From IMG/VR virus record IMGVR_UViG_3300042447_000691: 64,000 nucleotides of DNA. One strand, written 5' to 3'. A program made the translations under genes and the position numbers. Under the pieces are notes generated by a model, which saw nothing but the letters and a program-made list of their open reading frames with translations, ran no database searches and was not told where the DNA came from. This document shows, piece after piece, positions 42,474-51,064 of the stretch (position 1 is its first letter; each line of letters starts with the position of its first letter). This DNA comes from a virus.

Positions 42474-43319
42474 ATGAATAGAAGTTATAGTAAAATCAGA
42501 CACATTCAGGAAGCAAATCTATTAATAGAAAAAAGATTACTTGAATCTAAATCCGACAATTTAAAACCATTAATATCAGAACAAGATGTTAAACAAGGCG
42601 CTGCCGGTGATCCATACCAATATAAAAAAGAAGGTGGAAAGTATTTTTATGCTAAAAAGGCTGAAGGGACAAATGCAAAGTGGGTTGAACAAACAAAAGA
42701 CGAAGGTATTAAAGCTATTGCAACTAAAATATTTGGTGATCCTGCACCATCAAAAAATCAAACAAGCACTAAACCTGTAGATCCAAATATACCAACTAAA
42801 GAAAATACACCATTAACAACACCAGCACCGACTAAATCACCAACTAATACGAACACGACAACGAATACAACAATACCAACCAAAACACCAACGAATACGA
42901 ACACGACAACGAATACTAATACGAATACAACAACGAATACTAATACGAATACACCAACCACAAATAATCAACAATCTACCGTTCAGTGGGGAAATATACC
43001 AATAGTTGGGGGAACCTTTGCTGCTGATAAATGTAATGGGGGTAATACAATCAATGATCAACAAGTTAGAGGATTTTTAAGTGACGGTGGAGATAATTTT
43101 TGGTCTAAATCTACAATAGACACAAAAAACAAAACTTATTATTTTTATTATCAAGAACCAATAAAGAAAAATAGTTCATCAGGTAAAAAATATTGTAAAA
43201 TAACCGATATTAAAACATACGATTTAACGGGATATACAGACAAAAGAGACAATACTAAAGTCAATACTAAGTATTTTGGTTATCTTGTTACTTCTGTAGA
43301 AATACCCCAAACAACATAA
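42474..43319 (+). CDS. Protein with MNRSYSKIRHIQE leader and Thr/Asn-rich repeats
   Basis: Shares its N-terminus with 35021; TNTNTTT repeats. Confidence 0.65.
   Translation: MNRSYSKIRHIQEANLLIEKRLLESKSDNLKPLISEQDVKQGAAGDPYQYKKEGGKYFYAKKAEGTNAKWVEQTKDEGIKAIATKIFGDPAPSKNQTSTKPVDPNIPTKENTPLTTPAPTKSPTNTNTTTNTTIPTKTPTNTNTTTNTNTNTTTNTNTNTPTTNNQQSTVQWGNIPIVGGTFAADKCNGGNTINDQQVRGFLSDGGDNFWSKSTIDTKNKTYYFYYQEPIKKNSSSGKKYCKITDIKTYDLTGYTDKRDNTKVNTKYFGYLVTSVEIPQTT
42835..42965 (+). repeat. Imperfect ACGAATAC-type tandem repeats (TNTNTT)
   Basis: Visible low-complexity repeat array. Confidence 0.7.
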
Positions 43320-43336
43320 AAAAATAATAAAAACAC

Positions 43337-43366
43337 TTGTCAATTAAAAAAAAATACCTATATTTG
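43337..43366 (+). promoter_or_regulatory. Bacteroidota-type promoter upstream of tRNA array 1
   Basis: TTG-N19-TATATTTG. Confidence 0.65.
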
Positions 43367-43411
43367 TAGTGTAATTAAAACTTTTAGAAAAAACTATATA
43401 TTTATAACAAG

Positions 43412-43522
43412 ATGAGAACAACTAATAAACATATGAACATTTGTAACCCGAGCATTCAGTGGTCGTTTAACGTGTATCGTACGCTTAAGTCGCATATTAG
43501 GGCATTTTCATTTATGAGTTGA
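43412..43522 (+). CDS. Putative leader peptide 1 (36 aa)
   Basis: MRTTNKHMNICNPSIQWSFNVYRTLKSHIRAFSFMS, tandem TGA TAA stops, followed by a terminator and then tRNAs. Confidence 0.6.
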   Translation: MRTTNKHMNICNPSIQWSFNVYRTLKSHIRAFSFMS

Positions 43523-43556
43523 TAAAGATTAACTAAAAATATAAAAGAAATATAAG

Positions 43557-43586
43557 ACCCGAACTCAAAACAGTTCGGGTTTTTTT
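43557..43586 (+). terminator. Intrinsic terminator / attenuator 1
   Basis: ACCCGAAC/GTTCGGGT stem plus T-tract, 14 nt before tRNA-Thr. Confidence 0.8.
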
Positions 43587-43600
43587 ATACCCAAAAATTT

Positions 43601-43673
43601 GGTTCCTTAGTATAGTTTGGTAATATCCCGGCTTTGTAACCCGGAGTCATCAGTTCGAACCTGATAGGAACCT
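43601..43673 (+). tRNA. tRNA-Thr(UGU)
   Basis: GGTTCCT/AGGAACC acceptor; loop TT-TGT-AA. Confidence 0.8.
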
Positions 43674-43716
43674 CAAACAAAAAGAAAAAGTTCTTTGACA
43701 TATTGGCTTCATAAAA

Positions 43717-43800
43717 GGAGAGATAATCACAACGGCTTGTGACTCCGTCTTGAAAACGGCAGGTACTGAAAGGTATGGGGGTCGGCACCTCATCTCTCCT
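43717..43800 (+). tRNA. tRNA-Ser(UGA)
   Basis: Loop CT-TGA-AA, long variable arm, atypical T-loop. Confidence 0.75.
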
Positions 43801-43808
43801 CTGTAAAT

Positions 43809-43893
43809 TGCGGGGTAGACGAATTAGGCAAAGTCACCAGATTTTGACTCTGGAGGTAAATTACCATTGGAGGTTCGATCCCTCCCCCCGTAG
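43809..43893 (+). tRNA. tRNA-Gln(UUG) with long variable arm
   Basis: CCAGA-TTTTGAC-TCTGG; extra GGTAAATTACC hairpin. Confidence 0.8.
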
Positions 43894-43907
43894 CTAAAAA
43901 ACAATAT

Positions 43908-43981
43908 CTAGGTGTAGCTCAGTTTGGTAGAGCGGGGAGTTTGGGACTCTCAGGTCGCAGGTTCGATCCCTGTCACTTAGA
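43908..43981 (+). tRNA. tRNA-Pro(UGG)
   Basis: Loop TT-TGG-GA; canonical arms. Confidence 0.9.
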
Positions 43982-43985
43982 CAAC

Positions 43986-44061
43986 GTCTTCGTAGCTCAG
44001 TTGGTTTTAGAGCACTCCACTTTTAATGGAGGGGTCACAGGTTCGATTCCTGTCGGGGACA
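43986..44061 (+). tRNA. tRNA-Lys(UUU)
   Basis: CTCCA-CTTTTAA-TGGAG. Confidence 0.9.
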
Positions 44062-44130
44062 CAAAAAAATTTAGTAAAAAAGAACGATAGTTACCAAAAA
44101 ATGGTTATCTTCGTTCCAAGAAACTAAAAT

Positions 44131-44204
44131 ACACTCTTAGCTCAGATGGTAGTAGCGGTTGTTTTACATACAACAGGTCACAGGTTCAAACCCTGTAGAG
44201 TGTA
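44131..44204 (+). tRNA. tRNA-Val(UAC)
   Basis: GTTGT-TTTACAT-ACAAC. Confidence 0.88.
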
Positions 44205-44214
44205 CAAAAAATAA

Positions 44215-44295
44215 GGAAGTGTTGAGCATTTGGCTGGCTCGCTTGACTGTAGATCAAGTCCGAAAGGCGTGTAGGTTCGACCCCTACCACTTCCA
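44215..44295 (+). tRNA. tRNA-Tyr(GUA)
   Basis: CTTGA-CTGTAGA-TCAAG, variable arm. Confidence 0.88.
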
Positions 44296-44303
44296 CAACA
44301 AAT

Positions 44304-44392
44304 TGATGGGTGTCCCGAGATGGCCGAAGGGTCCGGCCTGTTAAGCCGATGAGAAATATTCTCCACCGTGGGTTCGAATCCCACCCCATCAG
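44304..44392 (+). tRNA. tRNA-Asn(GUU) with long variable arm
   Basis: CGGC-CTGTTAA-GCCG; extra GAGAAATATTCTC hairpin; G73. Confidence 0.8.
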
Positions 44393-44442
44393 CTGATTTT
44401 TTCCGAACTATCAGATATTTATTAATATAAAATGTTAATATT

Positions 44443-44985
44443 ATGGAAAGGTATTCGGAAAAAATTATATCTTTGAGGAAAGAAGGGAAAACCTACAAAG
44501 AGATTACTAAAATTTTAGGTTGTGCAATGTCAACAGTGTCGTATCATTGTCAGATACATAAATTGGGGGATAACAACCAAAAAGTGACGGAAGAAGAGAA
44601 AGATAAACTTCAAAAATTATACGATGAAGTAGGATCCTTAAAAAAAGTTGCAAGGATAACAGGTAGGTCTTTTGAAACTGTTAAAAAACACGTTAATAGT
44701 GTGGTTAGAGTTAAAAAGATTAGTGGTTCCCAATCGGTTATATTGTGGAGAAAGAGAACTAAAAAGAAATTAATTGAATATAAGGGGGGAGGATGTGAAT
44801 TGTGTGGGTATAGTAAATGTGATTCAGCATTACAATTTCACCATAAAAACCCTGACGAAAAAGATTTCTCAATTTCTGGTAGAAGTTTGTCTTTTGACAG
44901 ATTAAAAGAAGAAGTTGATAAATGTATGTTGGTGTGTTCTAACTGTCACGCCGAAATACACGAAAAAAATACCACCGAGAAGTGA
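44443..44985 (+). CDS. HTH + HNH homing endonuclease within tRNA array
   Basis: N-terminal HTH repeats; CELCG...LQFHH...KCMLVCSNCHAEIH. Confidence 0.85.
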   Translation: MERYSEKIISLRKEGKTYKEITKILGCAMSTVSYHCQIHKLGDNNQKVTEEEKDKLQKLYDEVGSLKKVARITGRSFETVKKHVNSVVRVKKISGSQSVILWRKRTKKKLIEYKGGGCELCGYSKCDSALQFHHKNPDEKDFSISGRSLSFDRLKEEVDKCMLVCSNCHAEIHEKNTTEK

Positions 44986-45044
44986 CTGACGAGTCCGATG
45001 ACGAGCTGAGGGGGTGGTTAAGAAATACCCCTAAATACGTACCA

Positions 45045-45117
45045 GTTCACGTAGCTCAATTGGTAGAGCGCCGATCTGATACGTCGGAGGTAATGGGATC
45101 GTAACCCGTCGTGAACA
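45045..45117 (+). tRNA. tRNA-Ile(GAU)
   Basis: CCGAT-CTGATAC-GTCGG; T-loop ATCGTAA. Confidence 0.85.
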
Positions 45118-45175
45118 CAAAAAGGGGGATAACTTGTGTGGGTGCCCCAACTACTGCAGTAGTACCACACTCTAT

Positions 45176-45264
45176 GGAAAGTAAACCCTGAAGGCGACGG
45201 GACATGCCTGCTAAGCATTGTGATCGGTGAAAATCCGATTGTGGATCGTTACCACTGCTTTCCG
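45176..45264 (+). tRNA. tRNA-Ser(GCU)
   Basis: ATGC-CTGCTAA-GCAT, long variable arm, T-loop ATCGTTA. Confidence 0.8.
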
Positions 45265-45268
45265 CAAC

Positions 45269-45338
45269 TCCCGTATGATCAGGGATCAAAGTTGGCTCAT
45301 ATCCTACTTGAGGTTGGTTCAAGTCCAACATACGGGAC
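45269..45338 (+). tRNA. tRNA-Met/Ile2(CAU) with reduced D-arm
   Basis: TCCCGTA/TACGGGA acceptor; loop CT-CAT-AT; T-arm GTTGG-TTCAAGT-CCAAC. Confidence 0.6.
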
Positions 45339-45344
45339 TTATAT

Positions 45345-45418
45345 GGTGTATGTAGCTCAGTTGGTAGAGTGTCGGTTTGTGGAACCGAAGGTCGTGGGAT
45401 CGTGACCCATCATACACA
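45345..45418 (+). tRNA. tRNA-His(GUG)
   Basis: TCGGT-TTGTGGA-ACCGA; encoded G-1; T-loop ATCGTGA. Confidence 0.85.
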
Positions 45419-45420
45419 CA

Positions 45421-45589
45421 AAAGATGATAAGAAGCGTAGAATGACAGACGTGGAGAGACGTGTCGCAAGGGTACAAACTAAGGATAGGTATTCAATCTT
45501 AATTGTATTGATGTAATAACCCAACTCTCTAATGGTGTGTGAAGGTTTCCAAACCAAGATTCCTGATAAAGTCATTCATCATCTTTTTT
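45421..45589 (+). ncRNA. Candidate ~170-nt end-paired structured RNA
   Basis: AAAGATGAT/ATCATCTTT and GAATGAC/GTCATTC closing stems; inner GGAGAG/CTCTCT and GGGT/ACCC. Confidence 0.5.
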
Positions 45590-45628
45590 TGACATCCGAT
45601 GTCGGTCCCGAGCTAGGTCGGGCAATTT

Positions 45629-45699
45629 GCGTGGTACAGACAAGGTGTCGGTCAGGTCTCCAAAACCTCGACGGGTTAGTTCGATTCTAACACCACGCG
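45629..45699 (+). tRNA. tRNA-Trp(CCA)
   Basis: AGGT-CTCCAAA-ACCT; GCGTGGT/ACCACGC acceptor. Confidence 0.8.
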
Positions 45700-45709
45700 C
45701 AAATAACAA

Positions 45710-45782
45710 GGACTCGTAGCTCAGTTGGTAGAGCACAGGACTGAAAATCCTGGTGTGGTCGGTTCGATTCCGTCCGAGTCCA
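45710..45782 (+). tRNA. tRNA-Phe(GAA)
   Basis: CAGGA-CTGAAAA-TCCTG. Confidence 0.92.
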
Positions 45783-45799
45783 CAAAACAAATAGAAATA

Positions 45800-46255
45800 A
45801 TGAACAGAGTATTTAGAACGGTTAACGGTGAAACAATTCCTGATGTGGTAAAACATACCTTAGATGTTCTGAAAGAATGTCCATGGGTGGAAGTACACAT
45901 CGGTACAGACTCACAAAACCACAGAAGAAGTACCGTGTATGTTACGGTAATAGCTTATAGGTATGGGAATAGGGGTGTCCATTATATTCTTCACAAACAG
46001 AAAGTGAAAAAAATAAGAGATAAATGGACACGTCTTTGGAATGAGGCCGATTATTCAATTGAGGTTGCCGAATGGTTAACCAAAAAAGTAAAGGTGCAAG
46101 TTGAGATTGACTTAGATTATAATAGTCAGGAAAAACATTTCAGTTCAAAACTTGTTCCTCCTGTTGTTGGGTGGGCAACATCGTTGGGTTATAAAACAAA
46201 TATTAAACCTGACAACCAAATTGCAACAAAAGCGGCAGATCACCACTGCCGTTAA
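45800..46255 (+). CDS. RNase H-like YkuK/DUF458 family protein
   Basis: HIGTDSQ...RLWNEA..SIEVA...EIDLDYN...AAD. Confidence 0.75.
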   Translation: MNRVFRTVNGETIPDVVKHTLDVLKECPWVEVHIGTDSQNHRRSTVYVTVIAYRYGNRGVHYILHKQKVKKIRDKWTRLWNEADYSIEVAEWLTKKVKVQVEIDLDYNSQEKHFSSKLVPPVVGWATSLGYKTNIKPDNQIATKAADHHCR

Positions 46256-46260
46256 TATAA

Positions 46261-46332
46261 GGACCTATGACCGAGAGATTTAGGTGCCGGTCTGCAAAAC
46301 CGGTTAGATTGGTTTGATTCCAATTAGGTCCT
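46261..46332 (+). tRNA. tRNA-Cys(GCA)
   Basis: CCGGT-CTGCAAA-ACCGG. Confidence 0.88.
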
Positions 46333-46339
46333 CAATAAT

Positions 46340-46420
46340 ACCTTCGTGGTGGAACGGTAGACACGTCAGATTTAGGATCTGATGCCGTAAGGTGTGAGAG
46401 TTCGAGTCTCTCCGAAGGTA
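46340..46420 (+). tRNA. tRNA-Leu(UAG)
   Basis: TCAGA-TTTAGGA-TCTGA, variable arm. Confidence 0.9.
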
Positions 46421-46505
46421 CAAAAAAGATTGATCCGTTATCTGTTGTGAAACACGTAACGGATTTTTTTGTATATTGATATATTTATATATAAAATAAA
46501 ATATT

Positions 46506-46775
46506 ATGAATAGATTAACAGAAAGAGATTTGTCAAGAATTGTTAGACAAGTTATTAAAGAAGACAAAGAAGATAAGAAAAAAACTATGAATGACATACC
46601 TGATAGTTTCTTTAAAAGTTTTTTATCAAAAACTAGTAGCATAATGACAAGCGAGGAGTTTTCTGATATTGAATCAATTTTAGGAAAAAGAGTTGGATCA
46701 AATGGTGAAGGTATGGGTGATGTTTTTGAAAAAATATTTATGGAAGCAAGAACAAGAAGAAGAAAAAACGATTAA
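46506..46775 (+). CDS. Leader-family protein
   Basis: MNRLTERDLSRIVRQVIKE. Confidence 0.65.
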   Translation: MNRLTERDLSRIVRQVIKEDKEDKKKTMNDIPDSFFKSFLSKTSSIMTSEEFSDIESILGKRVGSNGEGMGDVFEKIFMEARTRRRKND

Positions 46776-46776
46776 T

Positions 46777-47220
46777 ATGAAAAAAATAATAAGACTTACA
46801 GAATCAGATTTAACAAGGATAGTAAAAAAGGCGATTAACGAATCCAAATCACTAACTAAAAAACAATTGGATCAGATGGTTAAAGATAGTCTAATCACCC
46901 CAAGAGATAGTGAAATCTTAAAACTATATTATATTGATAATATGAGTTTTGATGATATAGCTAATAAGTTTGATAGAACCGTATCAAGTACTAAACAACT
47001 AATTAAAAAGTTATATAATGATATTTCAGATGTTGATGGGTTAAAAAATAAAAGACAAAGTAAAGATGACTCACAAAAAGAAAACCATATAAATAAAGTT
47101 AAAAAAGAAATGAAAAGGGTTAAATTTTATCTTGATAATGGTTATTTAACTAAAAATGAAATTATGTCTTTATTTAAAGAAGTTTTAAATGGTGAAGAAA
47201 AATTAACAACATTAAGATAA
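46777..47220 (+). CDS. Leader-family protein with sigma-70 region-4-like HTH
   Basis: Leader followed by ITPRDSEILKLYYIDNMSFDDIANKFDRTVSSTKQ. Confidence 0.65.
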   Translation: MKKIIRLTESDLTRIVKKAINESKSLTKKQLDQMVKDSLITPRDSEILKLYYIDNMSFDDIANKFDRTVSSTKQLIKKLYNDISDVDGLKNKRQSKDDSQKENHINKVKKEMKRVKFYLDNGYLTKNEIMSLFKEVLNGEEKLTTLR

Positions 47221-47235
47221 ATTTTTAAATAAAAC

Positions 47236-47264
47236 TTGACACTTTTGAAAAGAGTGAATATTTA
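47236..47264 (+). promoter_or_regulatory. Putative phage-sigma promoter (TTGACA-N17-TATTTA)
   Basis: A near-identical element recurs at 47588-47617 (N18). Confidence 0.55.
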
Positions 47265-47280
47265 TAATTAAAATAATATT

Positions 47281-47580
47281 ATGAGAAAAACTATAAAATT
47301 AACGGAAGGTGATTTATCACGTATTGTTAGACGAGTTATTAAAGAAGATAAAGAAGAAGATGAAATGGAAGGTATGGGTATGTCCATTACAGTAAAAGAT
47401 ATATTTGAGGCGGTTATAGATGCTCTTCACGATCTTGGTACGTATGATGATGCATCTATGGGTGAAAAGGCAATGAATTTGGCTAAAATGATTATGAGTA
47501 ACATGCAAGATGACTTGGCTTACGTTACTGAGAATTATGAGGATCAACTTTATGATATTCTTGGTGATGAAAATTATTAA
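47281..47580 (+). CDS. Leader-family protein
   Basis: [22 protein letters not shown]. Confidence 0.7.
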   Translation: MRKTIKLTEGDLSRIVRRVIKEDKEEDEMEGMGMSITVKDIFEAVIDALHDLGTYDDASMGEKAMNLAKMIMSNMQDDLAYVTENYEDQLYDILGDENY

Positions 47581-47640
47581 ATAAAACTTGACACTTTTGA
47601 AAAGTATCATATATTTATAACAAAACAAATAAAAACGCAA

Positions 47641-47715
47641 ATGAAAAATTTACATATCATATTATTAGGCGGATTGGCGATAGCTGAGGATCGTTCCTAT
47701 AAGGAGATGGTATGA
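47641..47715 (+). CDS. Putative leader peptide 2 (24 aa)
   Basis: MKNLHIILLGGLAIAEDRSYKEMV, tandem TGA TAA stops, followed by a terminator. Confidence 0.6.
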   Translation: MKNLHIILLGGLAIAEDRSYKEMV

Positions 47716-47740
47716 TAAATTAATTATATAATAAATTTTG

Positions 47741-47772
47741 AAACCCATCTCAATTACGAGGTGGGTTTTTTT
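47741..47772 (+). terminator. Intrinsic terminator / attenuator 2
   Basis: AAACCCATCTC/GAGGTGGGTTT stem plus T-tract; its 5' arm CCATCTC is complementary to GAGATGG in leader 2. Confidence 0.8.
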
Positions 47773-47810
47773 GTTCTTTGACATATTGGTAAAAAAAAGT
47801 TTAAAAAAGA

Positions 47811-47842
47811 TTTGGTAGATCAAAATAGATTACATATCTTTG
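47811..47842 (+). promoter_or_regulatory. Bacteroidota-type promoter
   Basis: TTTG-N20-TATCTTTG. Confidence 0.75.
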
Positions 47843-47987
47843 TAAAACAAATAAGGAAAAAAGGTTCTTTGAAATATTAAAAATATTGTGGTTGTAAGAA
47901 ACGGGAAACTCGTAAAGTGCATTAACCTGTTGACTCAAGATGGTGAAACGAGAGTTTGAGTCAACTACTAAACTACAAATGGTATAT

Positions 47988-48059
47988 CGCAGGATAGAGC
48001 AGTGGTAGCTCGCAAGGCTCATAACCTTGAGGTCGGAGGTTCGAACCCTTCTCCTGCAA
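47988..48059 (+). tRNA. Initiator tRNA-fMet(CAU)
   Basis: C1:A72 mismatch; loop CT-CAT-AA. Confidence 0.85.
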
Positions 48060-48130
48060 CAACTAATAGCCAACCAAGCTTTACTACGATACGGGTAATA
48101 CCTGTGGGTTAGGGGTGACGGTCAGGAGAG

Positions 48131-48224
48131 ACTGACGATTATGCTGACGTACCGGTGGATGCTTATATCATCTATGCCCGTAGAGGAAGTTTTAAACGTT
48201 GGTTCGATCCCAACCGTCAGTACA
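48131..48224 (+). tRNA. Atypical tRNA-like RNA, possible Ile(UAU)
   Basis: ACTGACG/CGTCAGT acceptor, GGATG-CTTATAT-CATCT arm, canonical T-arm, odd D and variable regions. Confidence 0.45.
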
Positions 48225-48228
48225 ATAA

Positions 48229-48300
48229 GCGGGTATCGTATAATGGTTATTACTCCACACTTCCAATGTGGAGATGAGTGTTCGATTCATTCTACCCGCA
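48229..48300 (+). tRNA. tRNA-Gly(UCC)
   Basis: CCACA-CTTCCAA-TGTGG. Confidence 0.88.
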
Positions 48301-48305
48301 CAAAT

Positions 48306-48375
48306 GGGCCTGATGCCGACGGCAGGTCAACTGATTTGCAATCAGATTGTTTGGGTTCGATTCCCACAGTGTCCA
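48306..48375 (+). tRNA. tRNA-Ala(UGC), imperfect acceptor stem
   Basis: CTGA-TTTGCAA-TCAG; G3:U70 retained; several acceptor mismatches. Confidence 0.55.
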
Positions 48376-48395
48376 CAAAAAAAGTTTGAAAAAGA

Positions 48396-48427
48396 TTTGG
48401 CAGATTGAAATAGATTACATATCTTTG
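48396..48427 (+). promoter_or_regulatory. Bacteroidota-type promoter
   Basis: TTTG-N20-TATCTTTG, nearly identical to 47811-47842. Confidence 0.75.
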
Positions 48428-48447
48428 TAGAACAAAAATAAAGAACT

Positions 48448-48729
48448 ATGACAAACACAGAGACAATTAAAACCGTAGGTTTAAAAATTACAAAAATTGA
48501 AGGATACGATTATTGTTTGACAGGATACCCAAACAAAAACACAATCCGTAATTGGGAAGATGCGTATGAGTTTGAAAGTTTTGTACAAGATGTTTTAAAG
48601 ATTGAAGGTGAGTTTGATTCTGAAAGTGGTCAGTTCTACGTGTACTTCAAAACTAAACAAAAGGCAACTGCGGCTTTGAATAAGATTGAAAAACATTTCA
48701 AAAAAGTTGGTGAAATGTTAGGTTTGTAA
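48448..48729 (+). CDS. Hypothetical protein
   Basis: 93-aa ORF after a promoter. Confidence 0.6.
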   Translation: MTNTETIKTVGLKITKIEGYDYCLTGYPNKNTIRNWEDAYEFESFVQDVLKIEGEFDSESGQFYVYFKTKQKATAALNKIEKHFKKVGEMLGL

Positions 48730-48737
48730 GAGTTAAT

Positions 48738-48811
48738 CGCCCGTTGGACAAGTGATTGAAGTCGCTTCCCTTTCACGGAAGAGATCATGGGTTTGAATCC
48801 CATACGGGTGA
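48738..48811 (+). tRNA. tRNA-Glu(UUC)
   Basis: CTTCC-CTTTCAC-GGAAG. Confidence 0.88.
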
Positions 48812-48814
48812 CAA

Positions 48815-49003
48815 TGAGTGAGAGATACTCAAGATGTTTTTAAGTTCATACAAAACTTAACGGTAGAAGTTACACCTACGTTACGGGTACTCGTTGGGAA
48901 TAAGGAAGGAAGGTTCTCCTCGCCCCCAAGTAAGAACTGACTTTTAAGTGGTAAGACACGTTGGGTTTTCAAATAGAAAAACTGTGAATATCTACTCACC
49001 ATT
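48815..49003 (+). ncRNA. Candidate ~185-nt multibranch RNA
   Basis: 5' GTGAG-AGATACTC pairs with 3' GAATATCTACTCAC; several internal hairpins. Confidence 0.5.
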
Positions 49004-49024
49004 AATCTCAGGTGGGGAAACTTT

Positions 49025-49097
49025 GGTCCATTGGTGAAATATTATCATATCTGACTGTCTATCAGAAGTCCTCGGAGAGTAACCGGGATGAACCGCA
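49025..49097 (+). tRNA. tRNA-Asp(GUC) with non-canonical T-loop
   Basis: TCTGA-CTGTCTA-TCAGA; T-loop AGAGTAA. Confidence 0.65.
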
Positions 49098-49117
49098 CAA
49101 AGTGTTCTTTTAAAATA

Positions 49118-49258
49118 TTGATAGTGGTTTTCCCCACCTCAACGGATGTCGACAATCCAGAGTGGATCAGGAATTCAGCACCCTTTCTGCCGGGGCCCTG
49201 ATAAAAGTCAGAAGAAGCAGTTAAGATTGGAGCGAGACGGGTACTCCATCACTATCAA
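49118..49258 (+). ncRNA. Candidate ~140-nt end-paired RNA
   Basis: TTGATAGTG/CACTATCAA closing stem; GC-rich internal hairpins. Confidence 0.45.
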
Positions 49259-49264
49259 CATATT

Positions 49265-49328
49265 TAGTCAGGTGGCGGAAGGGTAAACGCACTACAATCA
49301 GCAACAGGTTCGAGTCCTGTCCTGACTA
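49265..49328 (+). ncRNA. tRNA-like RNA without anticodon arm
   Basis: TAGTCAGG/CCTGACTA stem, D-like GCG...CGC, T-arm ACAGG-TTCGAGT-CCTGT. Confidence 0.6.
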
Positions 49329-49550
49329 CGTGGGAAAGATCTATCCCGAAAACAGAACATGGATCACAAACACGTAAACCTAAGTACCTGTACAGCGGTG
49401 AGTAACGGGCTAAGTTATATACAATTCCTCGGAGCTGGGAGTAGAATGCTTAGGAGCGTGTTTTTAAAATATAAAAAACTATGACACCATTATTGTTGAT
49501 ATTATTTATTATGTTTATCTTTGTAGTAAGAAAAAGAAGATAAAATTATT

Positions 49551-49674
49551 GGTTGGTCAGGAGTGTAATGAGGCACGGTGCCGAGTCCCCAAGACCAATA
49601 GTCCCAGACACTTGTGGGTTCTATGGAGTCGTAAGGTTGCTCATTGTGGGTTCGACTCCCACCCTGACATCACC
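49551..49674 (+). ncRNA. tRNA-like RNA with large insert replacing the anticodon arm
   Basis: GTCAGG/CCTGAC stem and T-arm GTGGG-TTCGACT-CCCAC. Confidence 0.5.
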
Positions 49675-49834
49675 GGTTACTTGATTCCTGGTAGTAGAGT
49701 AACAACCATTGGGGAATTCGGGATGTCCCGCGAATGGTGGTGTAAGATAAGAGGAACTTACAACGGTAGAGTACCATAAACAAAAGAAACAAGACGTAGA
49801 GGTGACTCTGCGTTGGCGCAAATCTCTACCAACT

Positions 49835-49927
49835 TAGTCAGGTTGGTACAAGGTCGGTTCGAGTCCGATGGAAGGTCATGGATGTCGGGTAGCTCCCTGT
49901 AGAGAGGTTCGATTCCTCTCCTGACTA
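49835..49927 (+). ncRNA. tRNA-like RNA with two T-loop-like hairpins
   Basis: TAGTCAGG/CCTGACTA stem; GGTTCGAGTCC and GGTTCGATTCC loops. Confidence 0.55.
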
Positions 49928-49966
49928 CACTTGACATTATTAAATTAATGTCTTATTATTATACAA

Positions 49967-50039
49967 AACCGGGTAGCTCAGCTGGTAGAGCAATCCTTTT
50001 TAAACAGGACGTGTCATTGGTTCAATCCCTTTCCCGGTT
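49967..50039 (+). pseudogene. Degenerate tRNA (Lys-like)
   Basis: Good D-arm, 8-nt anticodon loop TTTTAAAC, mismatched T-stem. Confidence 0.5.
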
Positions 50040-50064
50040 TTTTTATTTATAAAATTAAAATATT

Positions 50065-50271
50065 ATGAAAAAGTTTCTTTTATTGGTTTTGTCTTATGTT
50101 CTGTCATTCAGTATTGTTTGGGTTGGTTTGGGGTTGTTCAAATACTATTTGGAATCAGAATCATCAATCGGAACTTTTTTAATTGGATTAGTTGGTTTTT
50201 TCGTTGCCATTAATCCTGCTATGGATGTTTGGGAAAAATTATTCAAACGCTGGTTTAAAATCAAAGAATAA
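50065..50271 (+). CDS. Small two-TM membrane protein
   Basis: Two hydrophobic helices. Confidence 0.55.
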   Translation: MKKFLLLVLSYVLSFSIVWVGLGLFKYYLESESSIGTFLIGLVGFFVAINPAMDVWEKLFKRWFKIKE

Positions 50272-50455
50272 TAATTTAATAGTATGATCCACTCAAGAGG
50301 AGTGTTGGAACGGAGTTTGTTAATCTATTTATAAAAAAAAAACACTATGGAAGTAATTATCGCATGTTTAGTACCGATCGCGTTGATAGGTATTATGGTA
50401 GTATCTTATTTGACCTACAAGGGGAGATAAAAAAAGGGACCGAAGTCCCTTTATG

Positions 50456-51064
50456 TTATTTAATGTCTGTTGACTCTATTAGAGTATATGAAAACTTGTT
50501 TCCGTGAATTTTAGATGCCTTCTTACATAAAGACATAAACACATCAAAGTCTTTTACTCTTTTAAATACTTGACAACCCTCACTCCAATTTTCAACCCAC
50601 TGTGAGTCTTGACCTGCTTTGTGGATGTTAATACCAAAAATACCAGTATCGGTTTTTGTTTCTTCAAAAATAAGATCTTTGTTTGCATCTCTCCATACAG
50701 TTACATTTCCTAATCTTTGACAAAGAGCTTCATATTTTCCTTGATGTAAATCAATTTTCCATACACCTCTGTACTGACCCGGTACTAATCTTGCAACACC
50801 ATTTTTGTTATGGAATTGTTGAACACCCTTTTTACCTGGATCACATGTTGCCATCCAACAATAGTATTGCCAAGCACCTTTTTCATCTTTAAATGATAAT
50901 GTTAGATGATCGTCAAACACATTGGTCACTTTTTTATAAACCGCTGGTGACGTGTTTCTTACTCCTACGATATTCACATCGTAACTTTTGTTGTTTGCGT
51001 CTTCAAACCAAACATACCCTTTGGCTTTTACGGCAGCCTCAACCTGTTCTCTTGTGTAACTCAT
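50456..51064 (-). CDS. L,D-transpeptidase-like (YkuD-fold) putative cell-wall enzyme
   Basis: GINIHKAG...NWSEGCQVF resembles the H-x(n)-S-x-G-C catalytic motif. Confidence 0.55.
   Translation of the reverse strand: MSYTREQVEAAVKAKGYVWFEDANNKSYDVNIVGVRNTSPAVYKKVTNVFDDHLTLSFKDEKGAWQYYCWMATCDPGKKGVQQFHNKNGVARLVPGQYRGVWKIDLHQGKYEALCQRLGNVTVWRDANKDLIFEETKTDTGIFGINIHKAGQDSQWVENWSEGCQVFKRVKDFDVFMSLCKKASKIHGNKFSYTLIESTDIK

Follow-up and report, generated by a model that had tools for sequence, protein, structure and literature searches.

Organization of the locus

The window, that is the whole 64,000-nucleotide stretch of DNA that was analysed, forms the 3' part of a 109-kb IMG/VR viral contig from lake water with 32% G+C, which covers ~37% of its genome according to the completeness estimate. 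The host group of this large phage is Bacteroidota. Between 47588 and 47789 a promoter-like site, a 24-codon open reading frame (ORF), a terminator and a boxA follow one another ahead of tRNA sub-array 2, and a sister module stands before array 1. The features of the locus are as follows:

47588-47621, + strand: leader promoter, TTGACA at 47588-47593 and then the phage motif TATATTTATAAC at 47610-47621
47622-47640, + strand: 5' untranslated leader, A-rich, without a Shine-Dalgarno sequence
47641-47718, + strand: leader ORF, 24 codons (47641-47712) followed by the tandem stops TGA TAA (47713-47718)
47647-47660, + strand: region 1, codons 3-7, able to pair with 47707-47720 (ORF end and stops)
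47704-47710, + strand: region 2, GAGATGG, codons 22-24, putative 5' strand of the antiterminator
47740-47772, + strand: intrinsic terminator, with its 5' arm at 47740-47751 (region 3) and loop at 47752-47757
47758-47772, + strand: 3' half of the terminator, with the 3' arm at 47758-47769 (region 4) and the U-run at 47766-47772
47773-47789, + strand: putative boxA, an antitermination site for NusB/NusE of the rRNA-operon type, GTTCTTTGACATATTGG
47812-47843, + strand: host-type Bacteroidota promoter, TTTG at 47812-47815, 20 nt, and TATCTTTG at 47836-47843
47864-47878, + strand: second boxA-like site with two changes, GTTCTTTGAAATATT, behind the host-type promoter
47988-48060, + strand: tRNA-Met(CAU), called by ARAGORN, first tRNA of sub-array 2
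48131-48223: tRNA-Ile(UAU), called by ARAGORN
48229-48301: tRNA-Gly(UCC), called by ARAGORN
48304-48378: tRNA-Ala-like element with a UGC anticodon loop and a T arm, called as tRNA by neither ARAGORN nor Rfam
48738-48812: tRNA-Glu(UUC), called by ARAGORN
43337-43600: sister module, with a host-type promoter and a TATTTATA promoter, a 36-codon ORF (43412-43519) and a terminator

A search of Rfam gave no match at 47588-47790 (E up to 1), and among the GenBank phages of INPHARED there were matches at the tRNA level only and no close relative was found. Relatives were collected with the flanking protein and with short DNA patterns, and the leader module is present in 115 related contigs of lake phages, 24 of them viral and 91 from lake metagenomes. 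In three more distant relatives (L007-L009) the promoter and the ORF are absent and the homologous terminator comes directly after the upstream gene; as these loci keep the terminator alone, the module is dispensable and represents an add-on.

Promoters and 5' leader

TTGACA (47588-47593) and TATATT (47610-47615), separated by a 16-nt spacer, make up the top sigma-70-like match of the region 42500-51000 (11/12). The promoter claimed in a preliminary description of the locus is therefore in place, but instead of a plain sigma-70 site it represents a motif, TATTTATA, that recurs in this phage. More than 20 genes of the contig, both leader ORFs included, carry this motif 15-30 nt ahead of their ATG, with examples in the window at 46482, 47259, 50044, 55590 and 63269, and it is predicted to define a class of promoters specific to the phage, which differs from the host-type TTTG...TAnnTTTG promoters flanking the tRNAs. 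The stretch 47571-47631 repeats, at 85%, the promoter region of gene 47281 next to it, and transcription of the leader would start near 47622. Assembled metatranscriptome contigs cover small shares of the window, mostly through tRNAs of other organisms, and gave neither usable cover of 47622-47790 nor transcript ends. In Bacteroidota a Shine-Dalgarno sequence is not expected ahead of genes. The final 13 nt before the leader ATG are invariant, of which 10 belonged to the search pattern itself. The small proteins encoded nearby (46506, 46693/46777 and 47281) share a near-identical N-terminal Leu-Thr-Glu-x-Asp-Leu-x-Arg-Ile-Val and have unrelated bodies.

The consensus of Bacteroidota promoters consists of TTTG, about 20 nt and TAnnTTTG, and a motif repeated at 47809 and 48394 fits TTTG, ~20 nt and TAnnTTTG, the two host-type promoter regions being 92% repeats of each other. 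This host-type promoter, which the preliminary description had mentioned as a caveat, is present at 47812-47843, and a cassette of this kind is also located behind the terminator in ~55 relatives. Lying between the terminator and the tRNAs, the predicted promoter can bypass the attenuator proposed below.

Conservation of the leader ORF

The reading frame is preserved in 114 of the 115 relatives with a length of 22, 24 or 25 codons, and one locus is without a stop. At least five indels were found in the leaders, every one of them in-frame (multiples of three between families). The relatives encode ~38 variants of the peptide, and their variable sites number 9/14/14 (24-codon family) and 4/5/5 at first, second and third codon positions, respectively, so that the second position varies about as much as the third. 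The in-frame indels and the variable second codon positions together indicate that the frame is under selection and the peptide sequence is not. The leader ORF is probably translated.

The two AUA codons noted earlier in the window leader are correct, as is the 24-residue ORF with tandem stops. The peptide of the window does lack Thr, Gln, Pro, Trp, Phe and Cys as had been described, but this is not conserved, since Thr, Phe or Cys occurs at codons 18-20 in the leaders of close relatives; nor is the compositional complementarity that had been proposed for the two leader peptides of the window. UUR (Leu) codons make up 4 of the 24 leader codons as compared with 5.5% of codons in the whole genome (p ~0.04), but this enrichment came from a post-hoc test and was discarded. 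Pfam, with Tna_leader among its families, holds no family for either the window or the sister leader (E up to 1), and no chain in PDB matches the sister leader (E up to 10); an arrest peptide like TnaC of E. coli was dropped, as there was no PDB or Pfam match. Unrelated leader ORFs at loci L124-L368 often start with Met-Lys-x-x-x-Lys-His-(Met/Asn), and ~60% of the leaders at these loci contain Trp, which is far above the compositional expectation.

Terminator, predicted antiterminator and alternative RNA folds

The terminator stem of 12 pairs with its 7-U run has a free energy of -17.1 kcal/mol, and a homologous hairpin was found in all the relatives; transcription is predicted to terminate at the U-run 47766-47772. 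The terminator and the exact complementarity between GAGATGG (47704-47710) and CCATCTC (47745-47751), both claimed in the preliminary description, are present, the latter amounting to 7 bp between the ORF end and the 5' arm of the stem. A ribosome placed on the stop codon covers region 2.

When the 5' arm of the terminator in the window copy was paired with the upstream 74-80 nt, the best duplex reached -10.3 to -11.7 kcal/mol as compared with ~-7 to -8 ± 1.8 kcal/mol for dinucleotide-shuffled sequences, a modest difference at p 0.04-0.08. In the relatives, the duplex of regions 2 and 3 (2:3) beats shuffles (p<0.05) in 70% of 69 variants, while p is above 0.1 in ~17 of the 69, including the L006 group, which has tRNA-Leu directly behind the terminator. 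The consensus structure that RNAalifold returned for 76 distinct variants is the 2:3 helix, with one of its pairs being U-A in 46 variants, G-C in 17 and broken in 11. The change between U-A and G-C replaces Met by Arg, in keeping with the RNA, not the peptide, being under selection. Covariation within the family was rejected as evidence, as a single subclade holds all four base combinations and the covariation is mostly a single event. The antiterminator reading of the preliminary description finds support in this consensus and in the excess across phage families given below.

Folding of the nascent window RNA places the 2:3 helix in the minimum-free-energy structure with the ribosome stalled at codons 4, 8-9 or 13-14, and the helix is lost on masking 47698-47728, the span of a ribosome on the stop codon. 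The full-length minimum-free-energy fold retains the terminator (-37.0 kcal/mol against -26.1 kcal/mol with the antiterminator forced). Pairing of region 1 with the ORF end, whose duplex energy is -11.1 kcal/mol, is part of the minimum-free-energy fold; it has weak support from relatives, in which one U-A pair is changed to C-G (L031) and U.G occurs as the intermediate (L017).

The boxA behind the terminator

A boxA 17-mer follows directly after the U-run at 47773-47789, and the same 17-mer occurs again after tRNA-Thr, at 43690-43706. The exact sequence is located between the spacer tRNA and 23S rRNA genes in Pedobacter, Flavihumibacter, Niabella and Sediminibacterium, and as this is the classical place of the spacer boxA, we read the motif as the boxA of rRNA (rrn) operons. 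It matches 8 of 12 positions of the BoxA 12-mer of the Aquifex rrn operon (PMC3177189). The number of Bacteroidota genomes with the exact motif exceeds 120 and that of viral contigs exceeds 115, and in viruses the motif mostly stands just before tRNAs. A promoter within the motif (TTGACA) was considered and rejected, because a -10/-7 box is absent at usable distance and the motif is that of the rrn boxA. The 17-mer is very common in gut and environmental contigs of Bacteroidota phages (loci L123-L234), where it usually stands 10-30 nt before a tRNA or other structured RNA, with or without a leader module.

The junction of U-run and boxA sets the phage loci apart from those of bacteria. In bacteria, no U-run directly precedes boxA at any of 120 loci, and in host rrn spacers a small hairpin often lies a few nt before boxA and is followed by A-runs, never by a U-run. 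The phage hairpin/U-run/boxA junctions nearly always have a promoter and an ORF of 22-49 codons upstream. Where no promoter separates a terminator from the boxA behind it, only transcripts that have read through can make use of that boxA, and read-through at the window terminator thus appears to be intended.

Downstream tRNAs and the sister module

The preliminary description had listed fMet, Ile(UAU), Gly, Ala, Glu and Asp RNAs downstream. Met, Ile(UAU), Gly and Glu were called by ARAGORN, the Ala-like element was left uncalled, and tRNA-Asp was not found in the contig either by tRNA calls or by blastn with the tRNA-Asp of relatives. Where the window has the Ala-like element (48304-48378), relatives have a regular tRNA-Ala(UGC), and blastn of the tRNA-Ala of relatives against the contig gave no match. 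The Gly/Ala/Glu/Asp/Ile set had also been taken as the target of the switch, but the usual first target in the relatives is tRNA-Leu(UAA), which is the first feature behind the terminator in 54 loci and was not found in the 109-kb contig (blastn with the gene of relatives gave no match).

In 24 of these 54 loci the interval from the stem to tRNA-Leu(UAA) spans 33-39 nt and contains no TAnnTTTG box, so that the tRNA would be transcribed by read-through only. The other 30 have a host-type promoter cassette of ~55 nt inserted before the tRNA. In the window and ~25 loci the cassette is followed by a gene or a conserved stretch of ~100 nt and then by tRNA-Met.

The sister module repeats the layout before array 1, as had been stated in the preliminary description. 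Its tRNA-Thr lies 15-20 nt behind the terminator, the arrangement is conserved in 21 loci, and the terminator stem shows compensatory changes in relatives. However, it has no significant antiterminator (p 0.58; 0.2-0.26 in relatives). Rfam gave only a sub-threshold match to Thr_leader there (24.7 bits against a cut-off of 55).

Tests across Bacteroidota phages

A scan of all the phage loci collected gave 123 cases in 28 leader clusters of unrelated families. Every hairpin/U-run/boxA locus examined has a promoter and a short ORF, which ends 22-39 nt before the hairpin, and the peptides are unrelated between loci. A complement of the terminator arm was found upstream at p<0.05 in 57% of the 28 clusters (Fisher p 5.6e-18, mean z -2.3), as compared with 2.3% of 44 ordinary terminators used as control (mean z +0.08). 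Relative to the stop codon, the ends of the complementary sites range from 43 nt upstream to 11 nt downstream, most of them falling within the ~25 nt before it.

The preliminary description had proposed that leader content corresponds to tRNA content and had named a permutation test for it, which gave a clear signal. The share of leader residues served by the first downstream tRNAs (at most eight) was 0.404 against 0.314 ± 0.017 after permutation (z 5.4), and the share of codons, with wobble allowed, was 0.358 against 0.261 ± 0.015 (z 6.3). Values as high as these came up in none of 300,000 permutations of leaders and tRNAs, and the result also stands when the window's own families are left out; co-inheritance of leader families and tRNA arrays would inflate these statistics and may partly do so. 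The leader family of the window has a share of 0.35-0.43 for its own array and of 0.21-0.29 for other arrays, while in the window leader itself only ~0.26-0.30 of the codons are served by its own sub-array (manual count).

Three genomes carry two complete modules each, and all six of their leaders match better with their own array than with the second array of the same genome. As such swaps within a genome favour the own array, genome-wide codon usage does not explain the match. In L357 both leaders fit their own array better (manual count from the peptides). In L360 one leader of 18 codons, of whose residues 10 are Pro, His or Gln (manual count; score 0.53), stands before the tRNAs Pro-His-Gln-Gln, and the other is rich in Asp, Glu, Val, Leu, Ala and Trp, exactly the tRNAs that follow it.

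Proposed mechanism and alternative explanations

We consider it probable that 47588-47789 is a ribosome-mediated transcription attenuator of the trp type which gates the phage's own tRNA genes. This reading draws on a frame kept without its peptide, the antiterminator excess, the codon match and the boxA directly behind the terminator. The phage promoter would start a short mRNA whose 24-codon ORF gets translated, and the last codons of the ORF (region 2) would be able to pair with the 5' arm of the terminator (region 3). A ribosome running freely to the tandem stops would cover region 2, leaving regions 3 and 4 to form the hairpin and transcription to terminate at the U-run. A ribosome delayed at codons of scarce tRNAs would instead permit 2:3 pairing, so that no terminator forms and the polymerase continues. 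It would then transcribe boxA, presumably become Nus-modified and termination-resistant, and go on to the tRNA genes. The outcome would be a feedback loop in which slow decoding yields more tRNA, and read-through would respond to tRNA supply. As tRNA-Leu(UAA) is missing and a host-type promoter is present, the contribution of the switch in the window would be limited to extra expression of sub-array 2, possibly at another stage of infection. Its effect there may be small, since the first target is gone, the promoter has a boxA-like site and the codon share is modest.

A further step would be surveillance of the tRNA pool as counter-defence. Each leader would sample the codons of its own phage tRNA block, and on depletion of these tRNAs by anticodon nucleases of the host or by tRNA decay induced by infection the ribosome would stall in the leader, the polymerase would pass the terminator and gain processivity through boxA, and exactly the missing tRNAs would be replaced. 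We put this forward tentatively, as a possibility with less than even chances.

In this genome the switch may instead have been bypassed, with sub-array 2 being expressed essentially from the promoter at 47812-47843 after the loss of tRNA-Leu(UAA). The lack of this gene in the contig, an intact host-type promoter with the second boxA-like site downstream and the modest match of the leader codons to the window's own array are in line with such a remnant. However, the contig is only ~37% of the genome, and each part of the switch, from the leader through antiterminator and terminator to the first boxA, is intact. The same peptide is encoded in five other loci that likewise bear a promoter behind the terminator (L018, L060, L061, L065 and L083), which argues for continued selection, and a boxA ahead of the promoter is useful only to read-through transcripts. 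We therefore regard a mere remnant as rather unlikely, while granting it a real share of the probability.

The ORF could also be an independent small gene behind which an ordinary terminator is leaky, the tRNAs being reached by unregulated read-through or from promoters of their own. Its promoter is of the type found before more than 20 ordinary phage genes, the window and ~55 relatives have a host-type promoter after the terminator, the module is absent from L007-L009, and the shared Met-Lys-x-x-x-Lys-His start and the Trp residues could mean a function of the peptide. But purifying selection on the peptide is absent, second codon positions varying like third ones, and it has no Pfam or PDB relative. 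A micropeptide also leaves unexplained why complements of the terminator arm lie at the ORF end, why codons match the tRNAs and why boxA abuts the U-run, and we hold it to be improbable. Least probable of all is a nut-like element, in which the hairpin would act as a boxB-like partner of boxA or as an RNA processing or stability element with translation of the ORF irrelevant: the hairpin does abut boxA, small hairpins often lie a few nt before boxA in host rrn spacers and boxA is widespread before phage tRNAs even without a leader, but the host hairpins are followed by A-runs and never by a U-run, those of the phages have the canonical form of an intrinsic terminator (8-12 GC-rich pairs, 6-8 U), and the upstream complement and the codon match would be unexplained.

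Relation to known systems

The proposed attenuator resembles the multivalent leader-peptide attenuators of enterobacteria (trpL, hisL, thrL, the ilvGMEDA leader, pheL and leuL) in having a short upstream ORF, here probably translated, followed by an intrinsic terminator, in the overlap of the ORF end with the strand that pairs with the 5' arm of the terminator, and in codons that correspond to the regulated product. Like the ilv and thr leaders, it samples several different amino acids. It differs in that it is viral and would regulate tRNA genes instead of biosynthetic enzymes, in that its ORF is a mixed sample of codons without long runs of a single one, in the boxA after the terminator, and in a host phylum, Bacteroidota, which does not use Shine-Dalgarno sequences.

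Antitermination in rRNA operons involves boxA with NusB/NusE, NusA, NusG and SuhB, and the nut sites of lambda are related in kind. The site at 47773-47789 is identical to the Bacteroidota boxA between spacer tRNA and 23S rRNA; unlike that one, it stands behind a terminator that it cannot suppress and would serve a phage tRNA array instead of an rRNA operon. T-box riboswitches of Firmicutes sense uncharged tRNA directly and regulate aminoacyl-tRNA synthetase and amino-acid genes. The phage element may similarly couple read-through to the state of the tRNA pool, but the T-box binds tRNA without translation whereas the phage element would need a translated ORF, and no T-box was found at the site with Rfam.

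Phage tRNA genes are usually viewed as a fixed supplement to codon usage or as a replacement of host tRNAs destroyed during infection, and to our knowledge their regulation is largely undescribed. A full-text literature search returned no account of leader-peptide control of tRNA genes and none of boxA in phage tRNA arrays. Leader-peptide attenuation as such is known, and we found no published description of its use on tRNA genes. Freshwater jumbo phages of Bacteroidota have been described with no mention of such attenuators (PMC12619734). A textbook mechanism of amino-acid operons thus appears to have been re-used to tie tRNA synthesis to decoding speed, with the addition of a host rRNA antitermination signal. 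If this is true, the leaders would give a direct read-out of the tRNAs that a phage 'expects' to lack, the counter-defence hypothesis for phage tRNAs would become testable by simple reporters, and a compact programmable sensor of codon-specific translation speed would be at hand for Bacteroidota.

Other structured elements in the array

Between the second boxA-like site and tRNA-Met lies a conserved, structured-looking stretch of ~100 nt (47885-47985) with no match in Rfam. It has 84% identity in L009 and is present in L007 and L008, and contigs of one metatranscriptome run cover 47880-47979. Between 48812 and 49966 there are several tRNA-like pieces which have an acceptor-like stem and a T arm in common and from which a normal anticodon arm is missing; with introns allowed, ARAGORN called a 'His' with a 314-nt intron and a 'Ser' with an 11-nt intron in this region. 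At 49966-50041 a tRNA-like gene with an anticodon loop of 8 nt (ARAGORN anticodon 'ttaa') was found, similar odd tRNAs occur in relatives, and the gene could be a frameshift or stop suppressor.
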